A program made the position numbers and the translations under genes. The notes beneath the pieces were generated by a model. It was not told where the DNA came from, did not search any database, and saw only the letters and a program-made list of their open reading frames with translations. 64,000 bases of DNA, from assembly GCA_040397255.1 (NCBI GenBank), contig JBBAWJ010000002.1:35854-99853 (forward strand). Direction: 5' to 3'. Shown in pieces: positions 646 to 52,619 of the stretch. Every line of letters starts with the position of its first letter. Position 1 is the first letter of the stretch. The DNA comes from Candidatus Limnocylindrus sp. (lineage in GTDB: Bacteria > Chloroflexota > Limnocylindria > Limnocylindrales > Limnocylindraceae).

Positions 646-652
646 TCTCCCC

Positions 653-2340: not shown

Positions 2341-2430
2341 CCACGCATCCTAACCGCGAACCGTGATTCCCTCCTGGCAGGGCTGGGGCGGTAGGATGTA
2401 GAACAATTCAGCGGAGAGTGAGGAGGGTAA

Positions 2431-4267: not shown

Positions 4268-4407
4268 ACCATCGCACTGCTCCGCGCCTGCAACAAGCGC
4301 GGCGAGGCTGTTCTCACGGAGCGTTGCATCGTGGGCCCCGCGATGTGCGAGGAGAATCGGGCGCTGGAGTGTCTCGCGGGCGTGACCGATCGCGCTCGAG
4401 CGACGGC

Positions 4408-7406: not shown

Positions 7407-7457
7407 GTGGTCAATCCTACCCGCGCGCGGGGCTCTCGTTCAGGAGGGGTATGTGGA

Positions 7458-8195
7458 TCAGGCTGGGCGGCGGAGAACGTAGCCGATCCCGCGAACCGTC
7501 TGGAGGGCCACCGGCTCGGCTGGGATCGCCTCCATGGCCTGGCGCAGGGCGTGCATGTGCACGTCGACCGTGCGTGTTTCGCCGGCATAGTCATAGCCCC
7601 ACACCTTGTCGAGGAGCTGCTCGCGGGTATACACACGACCCGTGTTCTCAATGAGGAACGCCAGCAGCTGGAAGGCCTTCGGCTTGAGGTGCACCACGGT
7701 GCCGTCTCGCAGTACCCGCTGACCCTCGAGGTCAACCTCCGCCTCGGCAATGCGGAGGCGAGAGCCCACCGCAACGGGGCTAGCCCCAGTCTCAGCGCGG
7801 CGGAGCACTGCCCGAATGCGCGCGACGAGTTCTCGGGAGGAGAAGGGCTTCGTCACATAGTCATCGGCGCCAAGGTCAAGGCCGCTGATGCGATCGCTCT
7901 CAGACGCTTTTGCCGTGACCATGATGATCGGCACGCGCGAGCTGCTGCGAATCGATCGGCAGACCTCAATGCCGCCCATTTCGGGGAGCATCAGGTCGAG
8001 CAGGATCAGGTCTGGTGGAGCGGCGCGAAAGGCGGCGAGCCCTGAAGCGCCGGTGTCGGCCTGGGTGACAACGAATCCCTCGCCCGTCAGCGCATCGGCG
8101 AGCGCCTCACGGAGGGCTCGCTCATCTTCAACCAGCAGAATCTTGATCGGTTGTTCAGCCACGGCGAAACTCTGACGGGAGGGTGTTATCGCCAT
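7458..8195 (-). CDS. OmpR/PhoB-family response regulator (PhoP/RegX3-like)
   Basis: Receiver domain: IKILLVEDE...DLILLDLMLPEMGG...IIMVTAK. Winged-helix C-terminus: VDVHMHALRQ...TVRGIGY. The start is ambiguous: ATG 8195, GTG 8213 (overlapping gltX) or GTG 8162. Confidence 0.85.
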   Translation of the reverse strand: MAITPSRQSFAVAEQPIKILLVEDERALREALADALTGEGFVVTQADTGASGLAAFRAAPPDLILLDLMLPEMGGIEVCRSIRSSSRVPIIMVTAKASESDRISGLDLGADDYVTKPFSSRELVARIRAVLRRAETGASPVAVGSRLRIAEAEVDLEGQRVLRDGTVVHLKPKAFQLLAFLIENTGRVYTREQLLDKVWGYDYAGETRTVDVHMHALRQAMEAIPAEPVALQTVRGIGYVLRRPA

Positions 8196-8202
8196 GTAAA
8201 CG

Positions 8203-9705
8203 CTAGGTGCCACTCACCAGTGCAACGGCGGCGTCGAGATGCGCCAGCACGCGGGCGCGGCCAAGGAGACGCATGCTGTCGAAGAGTGGCGGCGTTGCCG
8301 TTCGCCCTGTCACCGCGACACGGAGTGCCATGAAGAGGTCGCCCGACTTCCAGCCCGACGTCTCGGCGAGCGCCCGGAGCTGCGCCTCGAGCGGATCTTC
8401 GGCATCAAGGAGTGGCTGTTCACCCTCGCCAACCGCCTCAGCGATCAGCGGGCGCGCCGCCGCGAGCGCCTGCAGGGTGGTGGCGGCATCCCAACGCTTC
8501 GGTACCAGCGCGGCACGATCATGCTTGAGCGCGGTGGCGAAGAGGAAGTCGGTGAGCGCGACCGCAGACGAGAGGAGCGGAATGCGATCACGGATCAAGG
8601 GAATCAACGCAACGATCTCCGCGTCGGTGGCCGCTCGCTGCAACGTGCCGTTTGCTGCAGCGCTCTCGTAGAAGGGGCGTAGTCGCACGAGCAACTCCTC
8701 GTTGCTCAGCCGTCGAATCCATTGGCCGTTGAGCCACTCCAGTCGGGTGCGGTCGAACACCGCGCCGGCCTTCTGCACATGCTCAAGGTTGAACCGCTCC
8801 TGCAGCTCGTCAATGGAGAGCACCTCATCTTCGCTCCCCGTTGACCAGCCGAGCAGTGCCAGGAAGTTGATCAGCGCCTCAACCAGGAAGCCCTCCGCTC
8901 GGTAGTCGACGAGGGCGGTCTGACTCTTGCGCTTGCTCATCTTCGTTCGGTCTGGATTCAGGATCAGCGGCAGGTGGGCAAACTTCGGTAGCGGCACGCC
9001 GAGCGCCTCAAAGAGGAGGATGTGCTTCGGCGTGTTGGAGAGGTGGTCCTCGCCGCGAATAACGTGGGTGATCCCCATGTCGGCATCGTCGACCACAACG
9101 GTGAAGTGATAGAGCGGCGTGCCGTCGGCGCGCAAGATCACCAGGTCGCCACCCAGCGCGTCACTGTCAATCTCCACTCGCCCGCGGACAAGATCTTCAA
9201 TTACGACCACGCCGGGCTTAATTCGGAACCGCAGGGCCGCCGACTCACCTGCTGCGATGCGGGCGGCTGAGGTTTCGGCAGGGATCGCGGAACAGCGTCC
9301 GGAGTAGCGCGGCGGCAGCTTGGCGGCTTCACGAGCCTTGCGCTCTGCGTCGAGATCGCCTGGGGTGCAGAAGCAGGGGTAGGTCAGCCCCTTAGCGCGC
9401 AGCTCATTTGCTACAGCGGTGTATCGCTCACTGCGCTCAGATTGTCTGTAAGGGCCACGGTCACCACGCTCCCCCTCCGCAACCACCCCCTCGTCGGCGG
9501 CAAGGCCGAGCCAGGCAAGACCAGCAAGGATGTCCGCCTCAAACTCCTTGGTGGAGCGAGCCGTGTCCGTGTCTTCGACGCGCACGATGTAGGTGCCGCC
9601 ATGGCGACGTGCGAAGAGCAGGTTGAAGAGCGCCGTTCGCGCCGTACCGATGTGGAACGGCCCTGTTGGGCTCGGCGCAATGCGAACGCGCACGACGTCA
9701 CTCAT
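8203..9705 (-). CDS. gltX: Glutamyl-tRNA synthetase
   Basis: VRVRIAPSPTGPFHIGTARTALFN carries the HIGH motif, and KMSKR is present. The ATG overlaps the stop of the upstream gene (ATGA). Confidence 0.95.
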   Translation of the reverse strand: MSDVVRVRIAPSPTGPFHIGTARTALFNLLFARRHGGTYIVRVEDTDTARSTKEFEADILAGLAWLGLAADEGVVAEGERGDRGPYRQSERSERYTAVANELRAKGLTYPCFCTPGDLDAERKAREAAKLPPRYSGRCSAIPAETSAARIAAGESAALRFRIKPGVVVIEDLVRGRVEIDSDALGGDLVILRADGTPLYHFTVVVDDADMGITHVIRGEDHLSNTPKHILLFEALGVPLPKFAHLPLILNPDRTKMSKRKSQTALVDYRAEGFLVEALINFLALLGWSTGSEDEVLSIDELQERFNLEHVQKAGAVFDRTRLEWLNGQWIRRLSNEELLVRLRPFYESAAANGTLQRAATDAEIVALIPLIRDRIPLLSSAVALTDFLFATALKHDRAALVPKRWDAATTLQALAAARPLIAEAVGEGEQPLLDAEDPLEAQLRALAETSGWKSGDLFMALRVAVTGRTATPPLFDSMRLLGRARVLAHLDAAVALVSGT

Positions 9706-38077: not shown

Positions 38078-38152
38078 TGGCTGGCGCGCTAGGATTCGAA
38101 CCTAGGATCCCCTGCTCCAGAGGCAGGTGCCTTACCGCTTGGCCACGCGCCA
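38078..38152 (-). tRNA. tRNA-Gln (anticodon CUG), CCA encoded
   Basis: The reverse complement is TGGCGCG-TG-GCCAAGCGGTAAGGC-A-CCTGC-CTCTGGA-GCAGG-GGATC-CTAGG-TTCGAAT-CCTAG-CGCGCCA-G-CCA. This folds as a hand-checked cloverleaf of 75 nt. Confidence 0.9.
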
Positions 38153-38223: not shown

Positions 38224-40260
38224 ATGGCTACCGATAAGCGACTGACGCCCGCCGCGCCATTGACGCCCGCCGTGGGCATCTTTAGCGAGGCACAGCGCCG
38301 CACCCTCACAGCCCTAGCGGAGGGATTCGTCGCTGGCGGTGGTGCCGCACGTGCCGCCGCCGCGGAGACAGCGATCGCCAAGGTGGTTGACCCCGCCCTT
38401 CACGGCCAGTTGCGGCTGGTCCTCAACCTTCTCGACACACGCATTGGCAGCCTGCTCATTGGCGGACGCCTGGCGCGCTTCGGCACGTTGAAGGCGACGC
38501 AGCGAGACGAGTTCCTGCGCCGCTGGGTGCAGCATCCGGTGCCAATGCTCCGCAGTGGCGCCGCAGTCTTCCGTAAGCTCCTCTCCTTCATCGCCTACTC
38601 CGACGCCGACGAGCCAGCCGATGAGCTCGTTCGCACGCGACTAAGCGCTCTCGGCTACAACCCCACACCAAACGCAGCCACAGCGAACGTCACCAAGATC
38701 ACCGCCTTTGACCCTGGCGACGCGGAGCGCATTGCTGTCGATGTCTTGGTGATCGGCTCGGGAGCTGGCGGCGGGAGCATTGCACGTGACCTATCGGCCG
38801 CAGGGCGCGAGGTACTCGTCATTGAGGCGGGTGGCCTCTATACCGAAGCGACCTTCCCAACGAAAGAGCGCGACGCCTACGAGCGCCTCTATCTCGACTC
38901 AGGCTTCACCGCCACGGCCGATGCACATATCGCGATCCTTGCCGGCGGCACCGTTGGTGGCGGCACCACCGTGAACTGGATGGCCTCAATCCCAACCCCC
39001 GAGCCGGTGCGCGAGGAGTGGGAGGGGGAGCACGGCGTCACCGGTGCCGCTGGAGTCGAGTTCGGAAGAGACCTCGACGCGGTACTGAAGGAGATCGGCG
39101 CGAAGGAATCCCAGAACGTGCCGCTCAAGGATGCGGCGATCATTCGCGGCGCCGAGAAGCTCGGCTGGAGCAGCGAGCGGCTTCAGGTCAACCGCGCTGA
39201 GTGCAGCGACTGTGGGACCTGCACGTTCGGCTGCAAGGTCGGATCGAAGCAATCCTCTCTTCGGCTTCATTTGGCACAGGCAGCAGCCAATGGTGCGCGC
39301 ATCTTGCCCGACTGCAATGCGGAGCGACTTGTCATTGAGAACGGCACAGCGACTGGTGCAATCACTACCTTCGGCGCGCGCGCTGGGTCGCCTCGCACGC
39401 TGGAGATCATCGCGAAGACGGTGGTCGTTTCAGGTGGCGCTCTCCGGACACCTGTTCTGTTGCAGCGCAGCGGACTCACGCATCCCGCTATCGGCAAGAA
39501 CCTTCGACTCCATCCGGTGAGCCTGGTTGCGGGAGTCTTCGACGAGCCGGTTGAAATGTGGCGCGGCACGATGCAGGCGGCGAAGAGCTCGCGCTTCATT
39601 GACCCAGATGAGGAGCGCAACGGCTACATCATTGAGAGTGCCCCTGGTCACCCTGGCCTTCTCGCACTCGGCATTCCGTGGACCTCTCGCGCCGAGCACG
39701 AACGCCTGATGAAGTTGGGTCGATACATCGCCCCCTTGTTGGCGATCGTTAAAGATGACGCCGGCGGCAGCGTAACGACGAGCCGCGCTGGCTTTGCCGA
39801 GATCAACTACCGCACCACGCCGCGTGATGAGCGCGGACTGCGCCACGCGCTCCGTTCAATGTCACGCATCGCTGAGGCGGCTGGCGCAAGCGAGATCATC
39901 GCCGCGGGATCACCACCGATGAGCTGGCGTCGCAGCGAAGGGAGCGAGGCCTTGGAGGTCTACCTACGCCGGCTGCATCGCTTCGACTTCTCCCCAAACC
40001 GCGGCACCGTCTTCTCTGCGCACCAGATGGGCACGGCCCGCATGGGGTCAGATTCAAACGATCACGTCTGTGATCCATGGGGCCGCGTTCGATCCACTCC
40101 GCGACCTCGCCCTAGCGATCCACACGGCGGCCTGATCAGAAGTCTCTATATCGCCGACGGCTCGCTCTTCCCAACGGCGCTCGGCGTGAACCCGATGGTC
40201 ACGATCCTGGCCGTCGCAAAGCGGGTCTCGCGTGCGATCATCGCCGACACGCGCGCATAA
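38224..40260 (+). CDS. GMC-family FAD-dependent oxidoreductase with a ~160-aa N-terminal extension (long-chain alcohol oxidase-like architecture)
   Basis: VLVIGSGAGGGSIARDLSAAGREVLVIEAG is the FAD GxGxxG motif. GGTTVNW is present, and the C-terminal SAHQMGTARMG...LYIADGSLFPTALGVNP matches the GMC C-terminal domain. Confidence 0.8.
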   Translation: MATDKRLTPAAPLTPAVGIFSEAQRRTLTALAEGFVAGGGAARAAAAETAIAKVVDPALHGQLRLVLNLLDTRIGSLLIGGRLARFGTLKATQRDEFLRRWVQHPVPMLRSGAAVFRKLLSFIAYSDADEPADELVRTRLSALGYNPTPNAATANVTKITAFDPGDAERIAVDVLVIGSGAGGGSIARDLSAAGREVLVIEAGGLYTEATFPTKERDAYERLYLDSGFTATADAHIAILAGGTVGGGTTVNWMASIPTPEPVREEWEGEHGVTGAAGVEFGRDLDAVLKEIGAKESQNVPLKDAAIIRGAEKLGWSSERLQVNRAECSDCGTCTFGCKVGSKQSSLRLHLAQAAANGARILPDCNAERLVIENGTATGAITTFGARAGSPRTLEIIAKTVVVSGGALRTPVLLQRSGLTHPAIGKNLRLHPVSLVAGVFDEPVEMWRGTMQAAKSSRFIDPDEERNGYIIESAPGHPGLLALGIPWTSRAEHERLMKLGRYIAPLLAIVKDDAGGSVTTSRAGFAEINYRTTPRDERGLRHALRSMSRIAEAAGASEIIAAGSPPMSWRRSEGSEALEVYLRRLHRFDFSPNRGTVFSAHQMGTARMGSDSNDHVCDPWGRVRSTPRPRPSDPHGGLIRSLYIADGSLFPTALGVNPMVTILAVAKRVSRAIIADTRA

Positions 40261-40296
40261 CTGCACACCGCGGTTGCTAGTAGCGGGCCTGCTCCC

Positions 40297-41808
40297 CTAG
40301 GGTACTTTCACCGTTGGCTTGCTAAACCAGAGCAGAGACGAGGTAGGGATTGCGGCCGTAACCCGTACGCGAAGGTAGGAGCTTCGATCGGCTACCTTGA
40401 GTGTGTAGAGTGATTTCGTCGCCCCAGTGATGATCGTGCACCTTGTTGGCAGCGTCGTAGATGCACTCTGCGTTGCGGTGCTACATCGGAACCACTGATA
40501 CGAATACTTTGGTGTTGGCCCGTAAGACCATGCACCACTCGTCGCGGAGAGCACCTGGCCAACCGCTGTAGTTCCTGAAATTGTTGGAGCTGTCACACGC
40601 GTCAGCTGCGCGAGCCACAGATTCACCTTGCTGGGTCGGGCCAGAATGAATCCGCTCGCAGCAACCTGTGCCGCCTTCGAAGTGGCTGGAGAAGTTTCGT
40701 CTTTGATATCACTCGCAATCTTGGGGGCGAGGGTGGCGTGGAGCGTAGCCGCCGTTGAGGCGAGACCCAGTGTGCTCGCTCTATCTCGTACATCGCGAAG
40801 TGCCTGTACATAAAGGGCCCGGCATGTACTTACTACCAGGCACTGCGTGAAGAGCAGACCGCCGATCGGTTGTCCGAAACTGTAGGCGGCTCGTTTCTCC
40901 ACGCCGCCCCCAAAAATCTGATCTACCCCCCAGGGCAACATCTGAAACCGTCCATCGTTATCGCTGTGCAGGTAGTAGTTGCTGATTGACGCCCCTGTAT
41001 AGCCATCCCAGTTGCCAATGTATCGATCGACTGCCCAATATCGTGTCATCTGCTGCAGATCTGCTGCCGCGCTCACGCGCGGATACCAGCTCGACGCAGG
41101 CGCTTGTGATGCGGCGATCAACTCTTGAAGATCCGCACGGTTGATGGCTGAGCCCACATCAACCTGGTAGTGCGCATCGTTCGCGTTCAACGGATTCCCC
41201 TCCGACCCAAGTCTCCCCTCGTAGAGGTGGGTTGTGCCGCCACCGCTGCTCCGCTTCTCTAGGGCAATCTTGTCGATCGACTCAACATTGAGATAGAGGC
41301 CATACGACGCCCCGTTGATCCAAACCTCGGCGTAGCCAGTTCGCGGCGCTGCGATGCCCATCTCTCGGAAGAGGGTATATCCAATCGCCTCATTGACCTT
41401 TGAGGGATCCTGGATCATGTTGTTGAGCGTCATTCGCTTGATCCCAAATGCCCGCTGCAGCTCGTTAGGAAACTCCAAGCGGAGTGCGGCCTTCTGGGGG
41501 AGCGATCTGTACGAGCCAACACCCTTCAGTCGCATTTTGATGTCCCACGCCCCGAAGCCAGAGGTGCCGCCGTACACCGTGCTGCCCATCGTCAATTTGA
41601 ACGTAGCGTCGACGTAGCCCTCAACGCCAATAGCGCTCAAGTCTGTGCTTGTATTGAGGTCGATGCGCACGATTCGCGAGGTTTGATACAGGGTCGCGGC
41701 GGGATCGCCCGTGGCTGGCGTAAGTGCCACCGCTGAGCCTGGGGCGAGCGAGCCGAGAAGTAGTGCGAGTAGGGCGAGTGTGCTGAAGCGCCGGATACGG
41801 TTCGTCAT
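40297..41808 (-). CDS. Secreted CotH-family atypical kinase with C-terminal Ig-like/beta-sandwich module
   Basis: Signal peptide: RRFSTLALLALLLGSLAPGSAVA. CotH core: KMRLKGVGSYRSLPQKAALRLEF...TLNNMIQDPSKVNEAIGYTLFREMGIAAPRTGYAEVWINGASYGLYLNVESID...HLYEG...IGNWDGY...NYYLH...LPWGVDQIFG. The ATG overlaps the VTC stop (ATGA). Confidence 0.8.
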   Translation of the reverse strand: MTNRIRRFSTLALLALLLGSLAPGSAVALTPATGDPAATLYQTSRIVRIDLNTSTDLSAIGVEGYVDATFKLTMGSTVYGGTSGFGAWDIKMRLKGVGSYRSLPQKAALRLEFPNELQRAFGIKRMTLNNMIQDPSKVNEAIGYTLFREMGIAAPRTGYAEVWINGASYGLYLNVESIDKIALEKRSSGGGTTHLYEGRLGSEGNPLNANDAHYQVDVGSAINRADLQELIAASQAPASSWYPRVSAAADLQQMTRYWAVDRYIGNWDGYTGASISNYYLHSDNDGRFQMLPWGVDQIFGGGVEKRAAYSFGQPIGGLLFTQCLVVSTCRALYVQALRDVRDRASTLGLASTAATLHATLAPKIASDIKDETSPATSKAAQVAASGFILARPSKVNLWLAQLTRVTAPTISGTTAVGQVLSATSGAWSYGPTPKYSYQWFRCSTATQSASTTLPTRCTIITGATKSLYTLKVADRSSYLRVRVTAAIPTSSLLWFSKPTVKVP

Positions 41809-42587
41809 GCTGAGGTTGCGGTTCGCACGACGCGGTCAACCCAGGGTGATTTCAGCGCTCGAGTCCAGCGATTCGACGGTAGTGTTGGGTCCATAGCGGC
41901 GAGGCTTGTGCCGAATTTGGAGAGCTTGACTGGACGGAAGCCCATCCTCCAGAGCGCACGATCGGCCACGGTAGGTGCCAGCCGAGACTTTGATTCAATG
42001 ATGGCGAACTCATTCAGGGTGATGCTCTCTCCCGCCGGCGTGGTCGCTGAGAATCCAGTGTCAATCGTCAACCGTGCATCACCTGGCAGAAGCAGGGTGG
42101 AGCGCTGATAGATTGTGGTAAGCGTCGGGGCTAGAGCAGATTCATGCCCTGGCCCAAGAACCTCTGCGATGAATTCTCGCGCGGAGCTATTGAGTTGACC
42201 GCTCGCGTTTGCTGGGTAGTCCAAACGGCTCTTCGTCGTTCGGCCCCGGGAACCGCGCAGCTTCACTTCAAGCATGCAGTCTCCAGAATTGGCATACGTT
42301 CTCGTCCGAACCTTGAACGCGTGGCGGCGGCGGCGCGCGGACGCTAAGTACGATTGCCAAGCGGGTGTATCGAAATAGACCGACTCATACCTGAACGAGC
42401 GCTCGTCGTTAATCTGGAGCGCGCGTGCGTCACCAGAGATCGCTGCCACAAGCGACGCTGCAACGCTGACAGGGACCAGGTATTTACGCTCCCGCCGCGA
42501 GAAGAGCGCCGCATCGCTCTGGAGACCGCTGAGCTGAACGGAGGGGAGTGCTCCAATCACCGCATCAAGCGCGGCCTGCTCGGTCAA
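41805..42587 (-). CDS. VTC-domain protein (Vtc4-like polyphosphate polymerase / triphosphate-tunnel fold)
   Basis: RRERKYLVP, SVYFDTP, FKVRTRTY, MLEVKLRG, ARLTIDT and IIESK form the alternating basic/acidic beta-strand pattern of the VTC/TTM tunnel. The TTG start overlaps the DUF4956 stop (TTGA). Confidence 0.7.
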   Translation of the reverse strand: MTEQAALDAVIGALPSVQLSGLQSDAALFSRRERKYLVPVSVAASLVAAISGDARALQINDERSFRYESVYFDTPAWQSYLASARRRRHAFKVRTRTYANSGDCMLEVKLRGSRGRTTKSRLDYPANASGQLNSSAREFIAEVLGPGHESALAPTLTTIYQRSTLLLPGDARLTIDTGFSATTPAGESITLNEFAIIESKSRLAPTVADRALWRMGFRPVKLSKFGTSLAAMDPTLPSNRWTRALKSPWVDRVVRTATSA

Positions 42588-43150
42588 GCGCCGTGCTCCC
42601 GCCCTGTGCTGGTGCGCTGTTCATAGCGGACCTCAACCATTGTTGAATCCTCAATGAGGTCGGTCCGGCGGACGCGAATTTGATGCACGGTTGCTCCGAG
42701 CAGCTCCTCAAGGCGGGCCCGCAGCAGCGGTTCGCTGGTGATCGCTTCATCTAGCATGATGACTTGCACTCGGTAGCGCCCGAAGAGACGAGGATGGTCC
42801 CCGATTGTTAGGCCGACCAAGATCAGCCCCATGAGCGCGGCACTGACCCAGATTGGGGTGATTGGCAGAGCGCCGATCAGGCCCAGCGTCATCGCAGCTA
42901 GGTAGTAGGCAATCTCTTGCTGATCGAGCTCCGCCGAACGAAGTCGTAACAGCGAGAGGACGGCAAAGAGGCCGAAGCCAATGCTGATCGTCGTCTCCTC
43001 TGCGACAAGGGCACTCGTCACCGCAATGAGGCCCATGTTGATCATGAGGTAGGCGACAACAAGATCGCGGCGGCGATGGCGCGGGAAATACAAAACGAAC
43101 ACAAGAATTGAGATGGCGACGAGATCCATACCGATGCCGAGCACGTTCAT
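42584..43150 (-). CDS. DUF4956-family integral membrane protein
   Basis: The N-terminal half has about 4 hydrophobic segments (LVAISILVFVLYF; VVAYLMINMGLIAVTSALVA; IGFGLFAVLSLL; LAAMTLGLIGALPITPIWVSAALMGLILVGL). The soluble C-terminal ~70 aa read YRVQVIMLDE...VEVRYE. The family assignment is from memory of DUF4956 being the usual partner of bacterial VTC proteins. Confidence 0.55.
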   Translation of the reverse strand: MNVLGIGMDLVAISILVFVLYFPRHRRRDLVVAYLMINMGLIAVTSALVAEETTISIGFGLFAVLSLLRLRSAELDQQEIAYYLAAMTLGLIGALPITPIWVSAALMGLILVGLTIGDHPRLFGRYRVQVIMLDEAITSEPLLRARLEELLGATVHQIRVRRTDLIEDSTMVEVRYEQRTSTGREHGA

Positions 43151-43171
43151 AATGTTACAAGCCTAGCATGG

Positions 43172-44716
43172 GTGGGCTATGATTCCCCAATGAATTCTGG
43201 CAAAACATCGATTCGGGCAACACTAATTTCTGTCGCAGTTGTAGGCGCCATTCTCTTTGGCGCAGCCCCCGTCGCCGCATACACCCCCCCGTCAAACGAT
43301 GATGCGGCTTGGCTCTACAAGCCATCAACGGTAGCCATGGTCGACCTGCAGCTTCCCCAATCATCTATTGATGCGCTCAGGGCAGATGGCCGAACGTATG
43401 TGCCCGGCACCTTCAAGCTCACCTCCGGAAGTAGGAGCTTTGGCCCATGGGCGGTTGAGGTCCGAATAAAGGGGCGCTGGGGATCGGCCCGAAGCATTGA
43501 CGAGAAGGCAGCATTTAAAATCAAGTTCCCCAACTCACAGCAACGGGTCGGTGGAATAAAGAAGCTCACACTCAACAATATGGTGCAAGACGGGTCATAC
43601 ATCACCGAGACAATCTCGTACGAGCTCTTCCGGGGAATGGGCGTCCCCGCCCCACGCACAGGCTATGCCGTTGTCAGCGTGAATGGTTTGGACTACGGCC
43701 TGCACCTCAATGTTGAAACGCCTGACGATCGCATGTTCGAAAAGTGGCTTCCTAACGAAGGTACGAAACATCTCTACGAAGGCAGCTACGGCTGTTGCTA
43801 CAACTGGCATGACCCATATGACGACAACCACTTTGATGTTGACGAGGGTGGCCCGGCAGATCGAAGTGATCTTGTTGCGCTAATCGACACGTTAAACTTA
43901 GAGGGGCTCGCCTGGCGCCAAGCGATGGAGAAGATCGCCGACCTTCGTGAACTCACCGCGATGTGGGCTGTCGAGCTGTACGTTGGCCATTGGGATGGAT
44001 ACGCGTGGACCGTAAACAACTACTTTATTCACAACACCAATCGCAATCGCATCACGATGCACCCATGGGGCTTAGACCAGACGCTAGGGGCGAGCGGGCC
44101 CCTCCCCTTTTCCGGGCCAGGCTGGGGGAATCTGCTTGACCGGTGCCTCACCGACGTGGTCTGCAGTGGCTACTTCTCAGAGGCCGTATTGGCGACGCGC
44201 GATAAAGCACGTGCGCTCGCCTTAGACGAGCGGACCATGACTGTGTTCACGAGGATCAGCCCCTACATTGAAGCCGACACTAGGGGTTATGGACTCGCCT
44301 CTGCAACGTGGTGGCGCGACCGCACCGTAGAATTCTTGCAAAATCGCCCATCGCATGTGGATCAGTGGTACCTCCCAGTTAGCTCACCAGTCAACTTGGC
44401 AATCTCCCCCGGGGCGGCATCTGCGCGCCTCTCATGGGGCGCACCTGAGCTAGCGGGTGGAGTGGTCTCTGGCGGATACCTCATTCAGTACAAGAGGTCG
44501 CGAGATAGAACTTGGAGGGCACTGGAGATATTGGATCCGAGTGTTACGAGCACACTTGTTTCCGGACTCGCCTCCGGTCGGTACGAATTTAAGGTGTCAA
44601 CAATTTCTTCAAGGGGGGCCTCGGCAGCAACGAAGACCGTTACGGCGTGGCTAAGCCCAGCGAGACGAGGGGGTCACTTCATTTCGTCTGCCCCAACGTC
44701 GCCTGTGGGACGGTGA
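43172..44716 (+). CDS. Secreted CotH-family atypical kinase with C-terminal fibronectin type III domain
   Basis: Signal/TM segment: IRATLISVAVVGAILFGAAPVAA. CotH core: VEVRIKGRWGSARSIDEKAAFKIKF...LTLNNMVQDGSYITETISYELFRGMGVPAPRTGYAVVSVNGLDYGLHLNVETPD...HLYEG...VGHWDGY...NNYFIH...HPWGLDQTLG. FN3-like tail: ARLSWGAP...YLIQYKR...YEFKVSTIS. Start is GTG 43172 or ATG 43190. Confidence 0.8.
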   Translation: MGYDSPMNSGKTSIRATLISVAVVGAILFGAAPVAAYTPPSNDDAAWLYKPSTVAMVDLQLPQSSIDALRADGRTYVPGTFKLTSGSRSFGPWAVEVRIKGRWGSARSIDEKAAFKIKFPNSQQRVGGIKKLTLNNMVQDGSYITETISYELFRGMGVPAPRTGYAVVSVNGLDYGLHLNVETPDDRMFEKWLPNEGTKHLYEGSYGCCYNWHDPYDDNHFDVDEGGPADRSDLVALIDTLNLEGLAWRQAMEKIADLRELTAMWAVELYVGHWDGYAWTVNNYFIHNTNRNRITMHPWGLDQTLGASGPLPFSGPGWGNLLDRCLTDVVCSGYFSEAVLATRDKARALALDERTMTVFTRISPYIEADTRGYGLASATWWRDRTVEFLQNRPSHVDQWYLPVSSPVNLAISPGAASARLSWGAPELAGGVVSGGYLIQYKRSRDRTWRALEILDPSVTSTLVSGLASGRYEFKVSTISSRGASAATKTVTAWLSPARRGGHFISSAPTSPVGR

Positions 44717-44727
44717 TGAGGTAGGGG

Positions 44728-44803
44728 TGGAGCGGGAGACGAGGCTCGAACTCGCGACATCTTGCTTGGAAGGCAAGTGCTCTACCAACTGAGCTACTCC
44801 CGC
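44728..44803 (-). tRNA. tRNA-Gly (anticodon UCC), CCA encoded
   Basis: The reverse complement is GCGGGAG-TA-GCTC-AGTTGGTA-GAGC-A-CTTGC-CTTCCAA-GCAAG-ATGTC-GCGAG-TTCGAGC-CTCGT-CTCCCGC-T-CCA, 76 nt in total. Confidence 0.9.
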
Positions 44804-44831: not shown

Positions 44832-45050
44832 ATGGATGGCTACGGTGACCGGCAGGGGCTCTGGGTTGGGCTCACGGTCGGGGCGATCGCGATCGGACTC
44901 CTCGTTGCCTTACTGATCACCGCGGTCAACCTGGCTGAATGTGAGCGACGCGGCGATCTGATCCGCCTCTATAACTCAGGGAGTGGGCCGCGCTACTCCG
45001 AGGTGTACCCAACGGAGTGGGCCGCCTGGGTTGCGGAGTGTCGCGACTAG
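44832..45050 (+). CDS. Small (72 aa) single-pass membrane protein, unknown function
   Basis: A strong SD sequence (AAGGAGG) lies 4 nt upstream of the ATG. One TM segment (LWVGLTVGAIAIGLLVALLITAV). The AEC tripeptide is duplicated (LAECERRG, VAECRD). Confidence 0.45.
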   Translation: MDGYGDRQGLWVGLTVGAIAIGLLVALLITAVNLAECERRGDLIRLYNSGSGPRYSEVYPTEWAAWVAECRD

Positions 45051-46009
45051 GCCTCGCTGACCGCCTCAACCGGCTTCGCTCGGCGGAGGGCACGCAGTCG
45101 ATTGATTCGATCAACGAGTGGTGGGTGCGTGGCCAAGAATCCGGCTGAGCGCTCTTCAAAGTGCTTCACCGGATTGATGATGTACATGTGCGCCGTGGCC
45201 TTGGTCGCAACCTCGAGGACCTCCTTATCGCCGGCCAACTTCGCCAACGCACGCTCAAGCCCAGCAGGGTTGCGCGTCAGCTCAACACCCGAAGCGTCAG
45301 CCAGGTATTCGCGCTGACGCGAGACGGCGAGCTGCGCCAGCCGTGCGGCGATTGGCGCGAGGACGGCAAGCACGATCGTGAGGATGATAAAGATCGCCTG
45401 CAGCGCATTGCCGCCTTCGCGGTCGTTGCTGCGTCGGCGACCGCCACCCCAGAACGCCCAGCGCATCACCAGGTCGCTCAGCAGGGCAAGTGACCCAACA
45501 AGCGCCGCAACGAGGAGGCCGTAGCGAATATCAAAGTTGCGCACGTGTGAGAGCTCATGGGCGACCACGCCACTCATCTCTTCGCGGTCGAGGGTGCGCA
45601 TGAGCCCTTCAGTCACGGCGATGCTGGCGTGCTCTGGATCGCGACCGGTGGCGAATGCGTTCAGTGCCGTGTCTTCAATCGTGTACACCTTCGGCTTCGG
45701 CATGTTCGCGGCGAGACAAAGCTCATTCACGATGTTGTCAAGTTCGCGCTCTTCTCGGCCGGCCGAAGGGTCAAGCTCTTTGGCACCCGCGGCGGCAAGG
45801 ACCGCCTTGTCGCCGCTGAAATAAGCGCCAATTGTCAAGAAGAAGCCGAGGACGAACGCGCCGAGGGCGAAGGGGATGCCACCCTCGACGCTGCCGCTGA
45901 GGGCGATCCCTGCGCTCGCCCCGAAGGCGGCGAGGATCGCCACCACAATTAGGACAAGGACGAGCGACTTTCGTCGGTTCTCGGCCGCAAGGTCGTAGAA
46001 GGTAGCCAT
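45047..46009 (-). CDS. htpX: M48-family zinc metalloprotease HtpX
   Basis: HELSHVRNFD carries the HExxH motif. TM segments flank it, and the C-terminal THPPLVDRI motif is present. Confidence 0.9.
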   Translation of the reverse strand: MATFYDLAAENRRKSLVLVLIVVAILAAFGASAGIALSGSVEGGIPFALGAFVLGFFLTIGAYFSGDKAVLAAAGAKELDPSAGREERELDNIVNELCLAANMPKPKVYTIEDTALNAFATGRDPEHASIAVTEGLMRTLDREEMSGVVAHELSHVRNFDIRYGLLVAALVGSLALLSDLVMRWAFWGGGRRRSNDREGGNALQAIFIILTIVLAVLAPIAARLAQLAVSRQREYLADASGVELTRNPAGLERALAKLAGDKEVLEVATKATAHMYIINPVKHFEERSAGFLATHPPLVDRINRLRALRRAKPVEAVSEA

Positions 46010-46027
46010 CGCGTCGACCGGTGCCGA

Positions 46028-46591
46028 CTAGGAGAGGTTGACCTTCGGAACGGCCTCCTCAGAATCAGGGGCGTCGAAGAACTCACGCTTGATGAATCCG
46101 AATGCGCTCGCAAAGAGCAGGCCAGGGAAGGTCTGCACAGCATTGTTATACGAGAGCACGGTGGCGTTGTAATGCTGTCGGCTGAAGCCGATCTGATTCT
46201 CGGTTGAGGTGAGCTGCTCCTGCAACTGAATCACATTCTCATTCGACTTCAGGGTTGGGTATGCCTCGACGTTAGCGAAGAGGGTGCGCAGCGAACTGGT
46301 CAGCATGTTCTCAGCCTTCGCCTGCGCCGCGGTATCGCCAGAGGTCCCGGCGTTGACGGCAGCGGCGCGCGCCTTGGTGACGCCCTCAAGAACGCCCTTC
46401 TCGAAGCCCATCTGCCCCTTGACTGCATCAACAAGATTTGGAATCAGGTCGTAGCGGCGCTTGAGCTGCACCTGAATCTGGCCGAGTGCCTCATCAACAC
46501 GGTTACGCCCATTCACGAGTCCGTTAAAGGCAGAGATCCCAACGAGTGCGAGTACACCAACGATTACGAGAACCGGTAGTAGCCCTTCCAT
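46028..46591 (-). CDS. lemA: LemA family protein
   Basis: N-terminal TM segment, then NGLVNGRNRVDEALGQIQVQLKRRYDLIPNLV...YPTLKSNENVIQLQEQL...RQHYNATV. ATG 46591 has an AAGGGGGA SD sequence. Confidence 0.85.
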   Translation of the reverse strand: MEGLLPVLVIVGVLALVGISAFNGLVNGRNRVDEALGQIQVQLKRRYDLIPNLVDAVKGQMGFEKGVLEGVTKARAAAVNAGTSGDTAAQAKAENMLTSSLRTLFANVEAYPTLKSNENVIQLQEQLTSTENQIGFSRQHYNATVLSYNNAVQTFPGLLFASAFGFIKREFFDAPDSEEAVPKVNLS

Positions 46592-46796
46592 GGCATCCCC
46601 CTTCAACTACACCTGTGGCGGCATCTGTCGCCTGAGATCAGTATACGACCACTCCCCGCACGAACTCCGGGCTGTTTGACGACCCCCCGGGGGGTAGGCG
46701 TAGGCTGCCAGAAGCAACTGGGTTGAGCCCTCTGAGGACTCCTCTGGTGTGGGTGCAGCCCGGCTTCCTGGGCCCCCGCGTGAAAGGCACTGAACG

Positions 46797-48173: not shown

Positions 48174-48236
48174 AATCCGCCCGTGCCACGAGCAGCCGTA
48201 GGGCGGAGTGGCCAATTGGGGGGAGGATACGAACTG

Positions 48237-50417
48237 ATGACGAGATCTGTCGTGCTGCGCACGCTACCGACACCCGATTCGTTCCGCGTCCCACCTCGCC
48301 TCGAGGGGTTGCGCCGCGTCTCGTACAACCTCTGGTGGTCGTGGCACCCTGAGGCTCGCGCCCTCTTCCGCCGCATTCATCCCGAGCGCTGGATCGCTAC
48401 GCGTAACCCCGTTGCGATCTGCTCTGGCCCAATTGACTGGGAGCCGCTCCTGGAGGATCCGAAGTTCCTGACCCAGGTCGACGAGGTCGTTGCTGCGTTC
48501 GACAACTACATGGCCGGCGGCAGCGACCTCTGGTTCCCTCGCGCACACGGTGCCGACCTCACCAACCCGATCGCCTACTTCTGTGCCGAGTTCGGCTGGC
48601 ACGAGAGCCTCACCCTCTACTCCGGCGGCCTCGGCGTCTTGGCCGGCGACCATATGAAGGCCGCCTCAGATATGGCGCTCCCACTCGTCGGCGTCGGACT
48701 CCTCTATCGCCGCGGATACTTCCGCCAAGCCATCGATGCCGATGGGCATCAGGAGCACGCCTACCCAGAGATTGACCTCTCGCTGTTGCCCCTCGTCCGC
48801 GCCGCGGGTCCGACCGGCGAGCAGCTCGTTGTCTCGATCCCACTCGGCGACCGCCGAGTTTCGGCGGCGGTATGGGTTGCGCAGATCGGTCGCGTGCCCG
48901 TACTCCTCCTCGATACAGACATCAGCGCCAACAGCGAATCTGACCGACCAATCACCCACATCTTGTACGTGCGTGGCCGGGAGATGCGCCTGCACCAGGA
49001 GATGGTGCTCGGCGTCGGCGGCATTCGCGCCCTGCGCGCCCTGGGCGTCGCCCCGTCGGTCTATCACCTGAACGAAGGCCACTCGGCCCTGAACCTCGTG
49101 GAGCGCACACGCGAGTTCGTCGCCGCGGGCGAGACGCTTGATAGCGCACTTGATCACGTCAAGCGTCACACCGTCTTCACCATTCACACCCCAGTCTCGG
49201 CGGGGAATGAGAAGTTCGCCGTTGACCTGGTGCGCCGCGTTGTTGGGCCGCTCTGTGACGGCACCGGTGAGGCCGACGCTGGCGGTGTACCGCTGCAGCG
49301 CATGCTTGATCTCGCCGTTGGCGCTGAGGGCGATCGTGGTGCCTTCGATTTGACCGCCCTCTCACTTCGACTGAGCGCTGGCGCGAACGCCGTGAGCAAG
49401 CTGCACGCGGAGACGGCGAACGCCACCTGGTCACCAGTCATCACCAACAAGATCCTTGGGATCACCAATGGGGTGCACATGCCGACCTGGGTGGGGCGCG
49501 AGACGCGCGTCGTCTATGAGCAGTTCCTGAACGCCGACCTCGATCGACTCGACACCGATGGACCAGAGGCGGCAGGCTTCTGGGAGCGCCTCGGGGGCGT
49601 TGATGCGCGCGCCTGGTGGGATGCCCACGCTCGACAGAAGGTGGCGCTCGGAGAGTTCTTGCGTGACTCCATCCGCCGACAGCTCGGGCGACACGGTGAC
49701 TCGCCCGACGCACTTCGCGAGGCGGACACCTTCTTTGACCCCAACGTTCTGACGATCGGCTTCGCTCGCCGCTTCGCCACCTATAAGCGCGCCAATCTTC
49801 TCTTCACCGATATTGAGCGTCTCACCCGCATCTTGAGCAACAGTGACCGGCCGGTGCAGATTGTCTTCGCCGGAAAGGCGCACCCGGCTGATCGCGCCGG
49901 CCAAGAGGTGATTCGCGACATTTGGGAGAAGAGCCGCACCGCCGCCTTCCGTGGGCGCATCTTTGTTATGGAGGATTACGACATGCGAACGACTCGCTAT
50001 CTCGTCGCTGGCTGTGATGTGTGGCTCAACACGCCGCGTCGACCACTCGAGGCGTCGGGCACCTCTGGAATGAAGGCCTCCGCCAATGGCGCCGTGAACG
50101 TCTCGATCCTTGATGGCTGGTGGGACGAGGGGTACACGGGCAGCAATGGCTTTGCGATCGGCGACACCTCCATCAACCCGGATGACGCGGCACAAGACGC
50201 AGCTGATGCCGAGAGCCTTTATCGCATCCTGGAGAACGAGGTCGTACCGCGCTACTACGATCGCGGCGCCGATGGCCTTCCCGCCGCTTGGCTTGACCTG
50301 GCGCGTGCATCGATCGGCAGCACCCTTTGGCGCTTCAGCACCACCCGCATGCTCCACGAGTACTGCGAGCAGCTCTACCTCCCCGCCGCCGCCCCACGAA
50401 CGGGGTCCCACCGCTAA
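48237..50417 (+). CDS. glgP: Alpha-glucan phosphorylase (GT35, 'alpha-glucan family phosphorylase')
   Basis: LRRVSYNLWWSWHPEARALF, YFCAEFGWHESLTLYSGGLGVLAGDH and EASGTSGMKASANG (PLP lysine region) are present. ATG 48237 has a GGGAGGA SD sequence. Confidence 0.85.
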   Translation: MTRSVVLRTLPTPDSFRVPPRLEGLRRVSYNLWWSWHPEARALFRRIHPERWIATRNPVAICSGPIDWEPLLEDPKFLTQVDEVVAAFDNYMAGGSDLWFPRAHGADLTNPIAYFCAEFGWHESLTLYSGGLGVLAGDHMKAASDMALPLVGVGLLYRRGYFRQAIDADGHQEHAYPEIDLSLLPLVRAAGPTGEQLVVSIPLGDRRVSAAVWVAQIGRVPVLLLDTDISANSESDRPITHILYVRGREMRLHQEMVLGVGGIRALRALGVAPSVYHLNEGHSALNLVERTREFVAAGETLDSALDHVKRHTVFTIHTPVSAGNEKFAVDLVRRVVGPLCDGTGEADAGGVPLQRMLDLAVGAEGDRGAFDLTALSLRLSAGANAVSKLHAETANATWSPVITNKILGITNGVHMPTWVGRETRVVYEQFLNADLDRLDTDGPEAAGFWERLGGVDARAWWDAHARQKVALGEFLRDSIRRQLGRHGDSPDALREADTFFDPNVLTIGFARRFATYKRANLLFTDIERLTRILSNSDRPVQIVFAGKAHPADRAGQEVIRDIWEKSRTAAFRGRIFVMEDYDMRTTRYLVAGCDVWLNTPRRPLEASGTSGMKASANGAVNVSILDGWWDEGYTGSNGFAIGDTSINPDDAAQDAADAESLYRILENEVVPRYYDRGADGLPAAWLDLARASIGSTLWRFSTTRMLHEYCEQLYLPAAAPRTGSHR

Positions 50418-50426
50418 CCTCTCCCC

Positions 50427-52619
50427 ATGAGTAGCAGTGGCGCACCCCGTAAGATCTCGCTCGCGCTCACCCTGCACAACCACCAGCCGGTCGGCAACTT
50501 CGGCTGGGTCTTCGATGAGATCTACGAGAAGGCCTACCTGCCGATGATCAAGGCGCTGGAGCGCCACCCGAAGGTGCGACTCTCACTGCACTACACCGGA
50601 CCGCTGCTCGAGTGGTTTGCCGCCGCGCATCCAGACTTCCTTGCGCGCGTGCGCACACTTGTGGAACGCGGCCAGGTTGAGATCGTTGGTGGCGGACTCT
50701 ACGAGCCGATCCTCGCCTCACTCCCCGCTGCGGATCGCGTCGCGCAGCTACGACGCATGCGCGAGCGCATTAAAGAGCTCGTCGGCGTTGCGCCGCAGGG
50801 TGCATGGCTCGCCGAGCGCGTCTGGGAGCCATCACTACCAGCGGCACTGCACGATGGCGGCTATCGCTGGACGATCCTCGACGATGCGCACTTCCGCGCC
50901 GCTGCTATTCCAGAGGATGCACTCTGGGGCGCCTACCTCACCGAAGATGAGGGGAAGCCGCTCACCGTCTTCGGCACCGAGCAGGGGCTGCGATATCGCA
51001 TCCCCTTCGGATCGGTTGAGAGCGTGATTGAGTATCTGCGTGAACATGCCACCCCCGACGGCGAGCGCATCGGCACGATGGGTGACGACGGTGAGAAGTT
51101 CGGCTCCTGGCCAACCACCTGGGATCACTGCTGGGGCGAAGGTCAGTGGGTCGAGAGGTTCTTCACCGCCCTCGAGACGAACGCTGACTGGCTCACCACC
51201 ACCACGCCATCGAGTTGGCTTGATGAGCGCGGCCCGATCGGTCGCGTCTATCTGCCGACCTCGTCGTATGCCGAGATGGGTGACTGGGTCTTGCCGCCAG
51301 ATGAGTCACAGGTCTTTGGGCCGATGCTGCATGCGGCACAGGATGCGCGTAGCCCTGAGGCGCGCTATCTGCGCGGTGGCTTCTGGCGCAACTTCCAGGT
51401 GAAGTACAGCGAGATCAACGATCTCCACAAGCAGATGCTGCGCACCAGTGCCAAGGTGGCCGCCATGCCCGCAGGGGCCGAGCGGCTCGCCGCCGAGGAT
51501 CACCTGCATCGCGGCCAATCAAATGACTGCTACTGGCACGGACTCTTCGGTGGTGTGTACATCACCCACATGCGCCTCGCCACCTTCGAGCACCTCATCG
51601 CCGCCGAAGACATCGCTGACGGCACCTACCGCCGCACCAACGCAGGGGCAGCGCTGCCAGCGCTCCTTGCCGATCTCGACCTCGACGGGGCCAGCGAGCT
51701 TCAGCTCGCCAACGCTGGTGCGCGACTGCAGATCGACCCGACCGAAGGTGGTTCGATCACCTCGTTCGACCTACGCGCTCCACACCACGCGCTCCTGGCG
51801 GTGATGCGCCGACGCCCCGAGGCGTATCACGAGAAGCTGCGTGCACACGCCACAGCGGAGGCCGCCGGCGCAACGGCGAGCCCTGCAAGCGAGGGTGGTG
51901 GCGTGGCATCGATCCACGAAATCGTCTCCGTGAAAGAGCCGGGCCTCGCGGCAAAGCTGCAGTACGACGACTACGAGCGCCGCTCTGCCCTACTGCGCCT
52001 CTACCCTGCTGGCACGAGCGGTCGCGCGATCGCCGACGGCGCCGCCAAGGCGATCGGCAGCTTTGCCTCGACACCTTGGGTGCTGACGGAACATGACGAT
52101 CACAGTGCAACGCTCACCGCCACGCAGCAGATTGGTGGCACGACCATCGCGGCGACGCGAACGATTCGGCTGGCGGGGGGTCGCATGGATCCAACCCTCG
52201 CGGTCGAGACGACGCTCGCGCACACCGGCGGCCCAGATCTCAGCGCTGTCCTTGATGAGGAGTGGAACTTGATGCTGCTCGGTGGCGGTGGTAATCCCGC
52301 GGCGCACTGGACGGCGGCGGGCGTGCGCACGGCACATGACGCACCGGGCGGGGCGCAAGCAAGCGCGCCACTCATCTCAGGGAACGACTACCTCGGCATT
52401 GCACTTGCGACCACCAGCGCGCCGCAGGCGGCCGCCGCATGGGCGCCAATCGAAACGATCTCCAACTCGGAGGGTGGATTCGAGCGCGTATACCAGGGAA
52501 GCTCGTTGCACCTCGTGCGCTCCATTGAGCTTCTGCCGAACGCAACGGTCACCGTACGCACCGAGCATGCCTGCGGCCTGAGCCGTGACATCACTGCAGA
52601 GGAGGGGCTCCCCTCCTAG
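50427..52619 (+). CDS. Glycoside hydrolase family 57 protein (alpha-amylase/4-alpha-glucanotransferase type with DUF1926-like C-terminal region)
   Basis: LALTLHNHQPVGNF...LSLHYTGPLLEW...EIVGGGLYEPIL...AWLAERVWEP...DDGEKFG is the typical GH57 catalytic region. Confidence 0.8.
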   Translation: MSSSGAPRKISLALTLHNHQPVGNFGWVFDEIYEKAYLPMIKALERHPKVRLSLHYTGPLLEWFAAAHPDFLARVRTLVERGQVEIVGGGLYEPILASLPAADRVAQLRRMRERIKELVGVAPQGAWLAERVWEPSLPAALHDGGYRWTILDDAHFRAAAIPEDALWGAYLTEDEGKPLTVFGTEQGLRYRIPFGSVESVIEYLREHATPDGERIGTMGDDGEKFGSWPTTWDHCWGEGQWVERFFTALETNADWLTTTTPSSWLDERGPIGRVYLPTSSYAEMGDWVLPPDESQVFGPMLHAAQDARSPEARYLRGGFWRNFQVKYSEINDLHKQMLRTSAKVAAMPAGAERLAAEDHLHRGQSNDCYWHGLFGGVYITHMRLATFEHLIAAEDIADGTYRRTNAGAALPALLADLDLDGASELQLANAGARLQIDPTEGGSITSFDLRAPHHALLAVMRRRPEAYHEKLRAHATAEAAGATASPASEGGGVASIHEIVSVKEPGLAAKLQYDDYERRSALLRLYPAGTSGRAIADGAAKAIGSFASTPWVLTEHDDHSATLTATQQIGGTTIAATRTIRLAGGRMDPTLAVETTLAHTGGPDLSAVLDEEWNLMLLGGGGNPAAHWTAAGVRTAHDAPGGAQASAPLISGNDYLGIALATTSAPQAAAAWAPIETISNSEGGFERVYQGSSLHLVRSIELLPNATVTVRTEHACGLSRDITAEEGLPS

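Follow-up and report, generated by a model that had tools for sequence, protein, structure and literature searches.

A four-gene cluster was analysed in a 64-kb stretch of DNA, referred to here as the window, from Candidatus Limnocylindrus sp. (contig JBBAWJ010000002.1), a bacterium of a freshwater Chloroflexota lineage. The cluster encodes a DUF4956 membrane protein, a Vtc4-type protein of the VTC family and two CotH-family proteins, CotH-A and CotH-B (Table 1). The DUF4956 and VTC genes constitute an obligate, translationally coupled core. The best-supported interpretation of their neighbourhoods is that this unit works in functional association with exported proteins that can replace one another, often with a dedicated two-component system. 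The system at this locus is real and conserved, has yet to be characterised biochemically, and is not an appendage of Pel.

The explanation that we favour, tentatively and a little short of calling it probable, is a stand-alone, envelope-associated phosphate system that has DUF4956 and the Vtc4-type tunnel enzyme at its centre and acts with exported partners. The two core proteins would be made in fixed stoichiometry through translational coupling, and would most likely form a membrane-docked complex. On the inner side of the membrane, the tunnel enzyme would convert nucleoside triphosphate to polyphosphate (polyP), or catalyse some related reaction of triphosphate-tunnel enzymes. DUF4956 would anchor the enzyme and pass a product or signal outward, and the interchangeable partners would act outside, on the cell surface or on an exopolymer. 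In the genome of the window, these partners would be the two CotH-family kinase-like proteins with their Ig-like and FN3 modules. By analogy, polyP is the most likely product of the VTC protein; the physical complex, the transfer across the membrane and the substrate of CotH are parts of the scheme that we infer.

These proteins bear on whether a Vtc4-type polyP polymerase exists in bacteria alongside PPK1/PPK2, on how polyP gets outside bacterial cells, where it affects host-pathogen interactions, and on the phosphoryl donor of exported CotH kinases where ATP is scarce. The system is a testable candidate for the way in which some bacteria decorate their surface with phosphate groups or polymers of phosphate. 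The two-gene core (188 and 260 amino acids) is small enough for direct testing, and the interchangeable exported partner lends itself to well-defined hypotheses that heterologous expression can address. Were the core to make only cytoplasmic polyP, it would still represent a second, unrecognised bacterial polyP synthase family, with about 1,700 clusters at 50% identity.

The DUF4956-VTC core and its exported partners

Gene neighbourhoods were compared at 80 genome loci around VTC relatives, mostly from Actinomycetota and Chloroflexota. Neighbouring domains were labelled with locally built hidden Markov models (HMMs), and cluster identities were confirmed by Pfam. DUF4956 was located directly upstream of VTC in 79 of the 80 loci, the sole exception being cut by a contig end. 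The stop codon of DUF4956 and the start codon of VTC overlapped by 4 nt in 65 of these 79 loci, and by 1-10 nt in 70 of them. For the window itself, an original prediction made from the sequence alone had described four open reading frames (ORFs) and two 4-nt overlaps, all of which were present when the sequence was read directly.

A CotH gene was found near the pair in 28 of the 80 loci and a gene for a Cthe_2159 beta-helix carbohydrate-binding protein in 30. The two never occurred together, for an expectation of 10.5 loci (Fisher p = 3e-8, uncorrected for phylogeny), and are mutually exclusive exported partners. A histidine kinase with an OmpR-type response regulator was present in 29 loci, and a NAGPA phosphodiester glycosidase in six. 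The conserved co-occurrence of the families that had been predicted was therefore upheld for the DUF4956-VTC core, but not for a fixed set that includes CotH, which Cthe_2159 replaces in 30 loci. DUF4956-VTC loci have taken up no fewer than three different CotH subtypes, and CotH and VTC genes have become neighbours independently in Acidimicrobiia, Actinomycetes, Binatia and Firmicutes; two CotH genes at one locus were seen at Aquidulcis-type loci only. Independent, Pfam-annotated gene calls gave the order DUF4956>VTC>CotH in a Binatia metagenome-assembled genome (MAG), and independent calls gave Cthe_2159>DUF4956>VTC in one further locus (L082) and DUF4956>VTC>Cthe_2159 in the complete genome CP009245.1.

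Export signals were frequent among the partners. An N-terminal hydrophobic segment was present in 27 of 28 Cthe_2159 proteins, with a lipobox in 24, and export signals were detected in 24 of 26 CotH proteins across the loci (lipobox in 13) and in six of seven NAGPA proteins. None of the 79 VTC proteins carried a lipobox. The enzyme is cytoplasmic, the partners are extracytoplasmic and DUF4956 alone in the core is membrane-embedded; most simply, then, DUF4956 would carry a product or a signal to the other side.

No Pel, glycosyltransferase or DUF4832 family was conserved around the 80 loci, where other neighbour families were each limited to six loci or fewer. Among the approximately 54 window ORFs scanned against Pfam, no Pel, glycosyltransferase, polysaccharide-export or DUF4832 gene was found. 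The lack of Pel genes in the window and of their conservation at the 80 loci indicates that the module is independent of Pel.

Further features were observed at individual loci. NAGPA glycosidases with a signal or anchor sequence were encoded upstream of DUF4956 in L028, L048, L054, L064, L076 and L077, and a GT2/GtrA gene was also located upstream in L028. In L061 (10766-12511), a calcineurin-like phosphoesterase with a twin-arginine translocation (TAT) signal followed the DUF4956-VTC pair; together with the NAGPA proteins, it adds exported phosphoester enzymes to the set of proteins linked with the core. Two Actinomyces loci (L031:6752-10846 and L034:9233-12842) harboured two tandem DUF4956-VTC pairs followed by Cthe_2159. 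Beside some bare DUF4956-VTC pairs, large ORFs of 600-970 amino acids with no Pfam match were present, in L058 (6861-9335), L080 (6904-9336), L070 (6426-9248), L079 (6331-9231), L056 (1469-3343) and L065 (4476-6296). They may encode partners not yet recognised, or be shadow ORFs that arise from the high GC content.

The tunnel enzyme and its membrane partner

Pfam profile searches upheld the predicted family assignments of the four window proteins (CotH, VTC, DUF4956 and CotH with fn3) above curated thresholds. The VTC protein matched PF09359 with 84.8 bits (cutoff 23) over profile positions 2-234 of 235, and was 98% identical to a protein from a 'Ca. Aquidulcis' MAG (L001). It had no hydrophobic segment and no second Pfam domain. 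A PDB search with the single sequence gave no match, and a family profile of 32 homologues matched Vtc4 at E = 1.3e-4. An AlphaFold2 (AF2) model was obtained with a predicted local distance difference test score (pLDDT) of 90.4 and a predicted template modelling score (pTM) of 0.88. When this model was compared with the PDB by Foldseek, each of the top 12 matches was to a chain of Vtc4 or of a VTC complex (E 3e-13 to 6e-11, TM-score about 0.6), the best structures including 3g3r, 8i6v and 3g3q (Vtc4). They were followed by Vtc2, and then by the triphosphatase YgiF and other enzymes of the CYTH/triphosphate tunnel metalloenzyme (TTM) group.

The claim that the VTC protein keeps the tunnel catalytic residues of Vtc4 was borne out by the profile alignment, in which R31, K35, R94, R96, K109, Y160, R162 and R172 corresponded to Vtc4 R196, K200, R264, R266, K281, Y359, R361 and R373, respectively. 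All of these were invariant, or almost so, in the 32-sequence bacterial VTC alignment. The pairs E198/K200 ('IIESK') and S223/K224 ('LSKF') likewise never varied among the bacterial proteins. They lie beyond residue 184, where the HMM alignment to Vtc4 ends, and we take them to be plausible equivalents of the metal-binding E426 and of S457/K458 in Vtc4. The first beta strand reads RRERKY, matching Vtc4 RxxxKY, unlike the CYTH protein encoded elsewhere in the window, which begins MERELKF with the canonical ExExK. In Vtc4 itself, R264, R266 and E426 are the positions at which inactivating mutations were made (PMC9911596). On its sequence and model, the VTC protein is a bare, cytoplasmic, single-domain triphosphate-tunnel protein of the Vtc4 type. 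Sequence and fold make it Vtc4-like, and polymerase and hydrolase are not separable from these features alone. The reaction of a polyP polymerase is ATP + polyPn -> ADP + polyPn+1.

The DUF4956 protein matched PF16316 over its full length (180 bits, cutoff 30.6; profile positions 1-169 of 169). Sequence identity within the DUF4956 family was 55-65%, versus 45-50% for VTC. The AF2 model was of moderate confidence (pLDDT 69, pTM 0.48), and contained five transmembrane (TM) helices at residues 3-21, 28-51, 55-70, 77-94 and 100-117 and a C-terminal beta-alpha-beta-beta domain at residues 127-178; of the four or so TM segments and small soluble domain originally proposed, the soluble domain stood and the helix count was revised. 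From the charge distribution, the N-terminus is predicted to be external and the C-terminal domain cytoplasmic. Invariant basic motifs (YFPRHRRRD, RLRSxELxQxE and GDHPRLFxRYR) were located on the predicted cytoplasmic side, and invariant polar residues (D9, N38, S66 and W101) in or near the membrane.

A Foldseek search of the DUF4956 model against the PDB returned nothing significant (best E 0.06), and no similarity to the Vtc1/3/4 channel was detectable; weak matches to the C-terminal 60 residues or so were mostly ACT-type domains. Lysine and arginine were confined to the loops, with none inside the five TM helices. In the eukaryotic VTC channel, basic residues within the TM1 helices line the pore (PMC9911596). 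Because DUF4956 has neither channel similarity nor intramembrane basic residues, the earlier suggestion that VTC and DUF4956 could be a split analogue of the VTC synthase/translocase was reduced to an analogy.

An exhaustive search yielded 1,726 clusters at 50% identity (E <= 1e-3), with a median length of 208 amino acids. In one locus (L013:7083-10750) the CotH and DUF4956 genes were fragmented and one ORF matched both DUF4956 and VTC, which looks like MAG frameshift errors rather than a true fusion. Elsewhere, Bacteroides thetaiotaomicron BT3498 (DUF4956) has been listed as iron-responsive together with BT3499 (DUF2490) (PMC10434189).

In a rather unlikely alternative, DUF4956 would be only an anchor or sensor, an MgtC-like scaffold with an ACT-like domain that binds a small molecule. 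It would tether and regulate the tunnel enzyme, whose product, either polyP or Pi set free from a triphosphate, would stay in the cytoplasm, and the CotH proteins would be co-regulated neighbours with an extracellular task of their own. The ACT-type character of the weak fold matches and the lack of basic residues in the TM helices are in line with this, as is the existence of CotH homologues apart from VTC, and the authors of a study of Streptococcus intermedius arrived at the same annotation and suggested cytoplasmic polyP (mBio 2025, PMC12345266). This alternative is kept alive because DUF4956 has no channel-like features and bare pairs exist, at about 20 of the 80 loci. It leaves unexplained why an exported CotH or Cthe_2159 protein is attached in 58 of the 80 loci, mutually exclusively and in operon-like or divergent position, and why three different CotH subtypes were recruited. 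The MgtC-like TM domain was also unsupported at the sequence level: alignment of the DUF4956 family to Escherichia coli YhiD by hhalign gave a probability of 0.2%, a weak test with a single-sequence template, and Pfam MgtC gave no match at E < 0.5.

For the envelope-associated phosphate system that we favour, several observations count on the negative side. The conserved tunnel residues of the VTC protein are common to TTM hydrolases too. In the literature searched, no bacterial protein with a VTC domain has been found to make polyP in a biochemical assay. The DUF4956 model, besides being only moderately confident, resembles no VTC channel and has no intramembrane basic residues, and true DUF4956-VTC fusions were absent among 120 homologues, the 80 loci and 150 representatives of the exhaustive search, where only fragments were found. 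No recognisable exported partner was seen at the bare pairs. Both window CotH proteins have Gly in place of a metal-binding Asp (D251 of Bacillus subtilis CotH), and three distant relatives from their subfamily lie among housekeeping genes with no VTC nearby. Finally, no aggregation defect was reported for deletion of the VTC-like gene of S. intermedius (PMC12345266).

Relation to Pel loci and other known systems

The combination of CotH, VTC and DUF4956 has already been described and partly tested genetically, and is biochemically uncharacterised; the original prediction, which held it to be functionally uncharacterised, was correct in the second respect only (PMC7112168, PMC12345266). What is new is a stand-alone, two-CotH, Chloroflexota variant of a gene set noticed by others. 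Genes for CotH, a poly-phosphate polymerase, DUF4956 and a DUF4832 glycoside hydrolase were recognised as conserved Gram-positive Pel accessory genes, contiguous with pelDEADAFG in streptococci, clostridia and bifidobacteria (Whitfield 2020, PMC7112168). In S. intermedius, where the set is SIR_1594/1593/1592/1591, SIR_1594 is a secreted CotH protein with FN3, SIR_1593 is Vtc4-like and SIR_1592 has four TM segments and an ACT domain. Deletion of SIR_1592 or SIR_1594 reduced Pel-dependent aggregation, a partial phenotype, and altered Pel levels. The authors did not find the trio outside Pel loci; they proposed that SIR_1592 is MgtC-like with an ACT domain, and suggested that the polyP stays cytoplasmic (PMC12345266). 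Our literature search turned up no biochemical work on DUF4956 or on any bacterial protein with a VTC domain.

The Pel accessory module and the window cluster share the same three contiguous families, a cytoplasmic VTC-like protein, a secreted CotH protein with a C-terminal FN3 module (here CotH-B), and a DUF4956-type protein with TM helices and a C-terminal ACT-like domain. The window differs from Pel loci in having no pel operon and no DUF4832 hydrolase, in encoding two CotH paralogues, one of them divergent, with Gly at the D251 position, and in belonging to a Chloroflexota host rather than to Firmicutes or Bifidobacteria. A second related arrangement is the NELoc-2 locus of Clostridium perfringens (CP4_0460-0465), which encodes a VTC domain, a membrane 'tubulin/FtsZ-like' protein (both twice) and CotH (PMC2879425). 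Its VTC genes are each paired with a membrane-protein gene and adjoined by CotH, and the duplicated pairs resemble the tandem pairs of L031 and L034, but its context is a pathogenicity locus with a chitin-synthase-like glycosyltransferase.

The resemblance to Pel loci raises a further alternative, in which the cluster would be an exopolysaccharide or wall-glycan modification module, with CotH for example as a glycan kinase and the synthase encoded elsewhere in the genome. The contiguity of the trio with pelDEADAFG and the change in Pel levels on deletion point in this direction, as do the carbohydrate-related alternative partners (Cthe_2159, CotH-CBM2 fusions and NAGPA) and the GT2/GtrA gene upstream in L028. 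Since the 64 kb contain no gene for Pel, a glycosyltransferase or polysaccharide export, and no such family is conserved around the 80 loci, this reading is improbable as a separate explanation, although it overlaps the envelope-associated phosphate system rather than excluding it.

The eukaryotic VTC complex (Vtc4/Vtc3 or Vtc2/Vtc1; 3G3Q, 7YTJ, 8I6V) has the same Pfam family, tunnel fold and key residues, and its catalytic protein is likewise obligatorily paired with a membrane protein. The bacterial enzyme lacks the SPX domain and TM helices of the eukaryotic one, and DUF4956, with five TM helices, an ACT-like domain and no intramembrane basic residues, is unrelated to the 3-TM Vtc1-type domain. 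The canonical enzymes of polyP metabolism (PPK1/PPK2 and PPX) would share the polymer with DUF4956-VTC if the latter handles polyP, but are unrelated in fold and chemistry, and PPK1 is not paired with exported partners, unlike DUF4956-VTC. The PPK1/PPX/CYTH set that had been noted in the window was confirmed, and with canonical PPK1 and PPX in the same window, DUF4956-VTC would be a second polyP-type enzyme. A 2026 preprint describes extracellular polyP in the Bacillus cereus group that is PPK-independent and PPX-resistant; the pathway was not identified by its authors, who found no VTC4 homologue in that organism.

The CotH proteins and the genomic context

CotH-A and CotH-B matched the CotH profile PF08757 with 131 and 123 bits, respectively (cutoff 23.8), and were 39% identical to each other; CotH-A also matched B. 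cereus CotH (5JD9) at 8.5e-12 over approximately 190 residues. CotH-A comprises a Sec-type signal peptide (residues 1 to about 28, AVA|L; hydrophobic segment 8-31), a CotH kinase-like domain (93-378) and a C-terminus (about 396-503) that matched SCAB-Ig below threshold (E = 1e-3) and is a candidate Ig-like module. CotH-B has a signal or anchor (hydrophobic segment 12-39), a CotH domain and FN3 at residues 405-491. Of the two surface modules claimed, FN3 was thus secure and the Ig-like one was sub-threshold. Hydropathy analysis gave one N-terminal hydrophobic signal in each protein, in agreement with the signal or anchor sequences originally proposed; both are predicted to be exported, and neither is predicted to be cytoplasmic.

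The motifs of CotH-A are NWD...SNYY...PWGVDQ. Both paralogues keep the catalytic Asp (D228 in B. subtilis) and, after it, the Asn (NWD/HWD and SNY/NNY), and the Asp was present in 121 of 123 aligned CotH sequences. The D228/D251 numbering was reproduced exactly with a B. subtilis CotH sequence, which we regard as corroboration only. The claim that the core motifs are retained held for Asp and Asn, and failed for PWGxDQ as a canonical motif, Gly being at the D251 equivalent; an Asp at +2 from this position was kept in both proteins. Other VTC-linked CotH types retain the first Asp, and the catalytic loop of the window proteins carries an insertion of four residues relative to Bacillus CotH. In B. 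subtilis CotH, D251 is a metal ligand, the first D of PWDYD, and the D251A protein is inactive (Freitas 2020, PMC7821199). Gly at this position and Asp at +2 were invariant in 120 of 120 nearest homologues, down to 35% identity, a pattern that fits an active site that has been re-wired and still functions, and not one in decay. On sequence grounds, the pair belongs to a large Gly-variant subfamily under selection with a re-wired site, and does not consist of decayed copies. The Bacillus spore-coat kinase (5JD9/5JDA) is of the same Pfam family and shares the D228 Asp and the Asn; the window proteins differ from it in their predicted export, their surface modules, the Gly at D251 and the absence of a sporulation context.

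Gly-variant CotH proteins were also observed away from VTC and DUF4956, singly or in tandem, in L084-L086, at least one of which was assigned to Solirubrobacterales. They were fused to LTD or Big_1/invasin domains, and in L085 and L086 occupied a conserved position beside malic enzyme and DNA polymerase I.

In a decidedly improbable extension of the envelope-associated phosphate system, DUF4956-VTC would be a polyP synthase-exporter with a membrane conduit whose evolution was independent of the eukaryotic VTC channel, surface polyP would be the donor or substrate of the re-wired CotH proteins, and Cthe_2159 proteins would be alternative polyP handlers. The use of exported polyP by CotH is attractive: it could solve the donor problem of an exported kinase, might relate to the re-wired metal site and, if true, would mean ATP-independent phosphorylation of proteins or glycans outside the cell. 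The idea of polyP as CotH donor is weakened by the CotH homologues without an adjacent VTC gene, and by the non-kinase Cthe_2159 taking the place of CotH. The least probable of the alternatives, that the window CotH proteins are pseudokinases or non-kinase binding proteins, adhesin-like through FN3 and Ig, placed beside VTC by the lineage-specific accident of a small islet acquired horizontally, draws on the Gly at the D251 ligand, the GC dip over the four genes beside tRNA-Gly and the restricted two-CotH arrangement, and is opposed by the kept catalytic Asp and Asn, the invariant Gly and +2 Asp that fit a re-wired site, a ratio of nonsynonymous to synonymous substitution rates (dN/dS) of about 0.16-0.20 for these genes and the independent recurrence of CotH-VTC adjacency in four groups.

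Table 1. Features of the four-gene cluster and other window features (window positions)
Feature	Position	Strand	Size or context	Profile match (E value)
CotH-A	40297-41808	-	503 aa	Pfam CotH 7e-38
VTC protein	41805-42587	-	260 aa, TTG start	Pfam PF09359 9e-24
DUF4956 membrane protein	42584-43150	-	188 aa	Pfam PF16316 4e-53
CotH-B	43172-44716	+	514 aa from GTG 43172	Pfam CotH 3e-35, fn3 4e-6
TTGA overlap, DUF4956 stop/VTC start	42584-42587	-	gcgcTTGAccg in sequence	
ATGA overlap, VTC stop/CotH-A start	41805-41808	-	cagcATGAcga in sequence	
Divergent DUF4956/CotH-B intergenic region	43151-43189	.	about 21-39 bp between start codons	
tRNA-Gln	38078-38152			
tRNA-Gly	44728-44803		12 bp past CotH-B stop codon	
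PPK1, C-terminal end	25-645		gene cut by window start	
CYTH protein	653-1282		canonical ExExK	
PPX/GppA	1279-2340	-		
PhoU	2431-3180			
GDPD	3698-4267	-		
PAS histidine kinase	4408-5622	-		
OmpR-type regulator	7458-8213	-		

For CotH-B, ATG 43190 (508 amino acids, MNSGKTSIR...) is a more likely start than GTG 43172, and would put about 39 bp between the two divergent start codons. A promoter-like GTTACA-18-TATGAT was present at 43154-43183, a consensus match only, no stronger than expected of shuffled sequence; as a promoter, it would give a leaderless CotH-B mRNA starting at ATG 43190. A promoter and terminator scan of the locus found none exceeding the shuffle expectation. All four genes were under purifying selection, with dN/dS of 0.05-0.25 against the orthologous loci of related MAGs. 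No NCBIfam model matched any of the four proteins, and an anti-phage defence function was dropped as a candidate, as none of them matched a PADLOC defence model at E < 0.01.

The GC content was 0.55-0.60 exactly across the four genes (40200-44700) and approximately 0.64 in the flanks, and the region was bracketed by tRNA-Gln and tRNA-Gly. The cluster may be a small horizontally acquired islet. A genomic island, suggested by the GC dip and the adjoining tRNA-Gly, was not retained as a reading, as no att-like repeats or integrase were found at the cluster. The flanking genes were housekeeping genes: a GMC oxidoreductase, an alpha/beta-hydrolase and a low-molecular-weight phosphatase on one side, and HtpX, LemA and glycogen metabolism on the other.

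A phosphate/polyP neighbourhood occupied positions 25-8213 of the window. Directly past tRNA-Gly, an HtpX (M48) and LemA pair was located at 45047-46606. Further on, at 48183-52619, was a glycogen-type pair, in which a GH57 enzyme accompanies a DUF3417 glucan phosphorylase. Both pairs are ordinary housekeeping genes.

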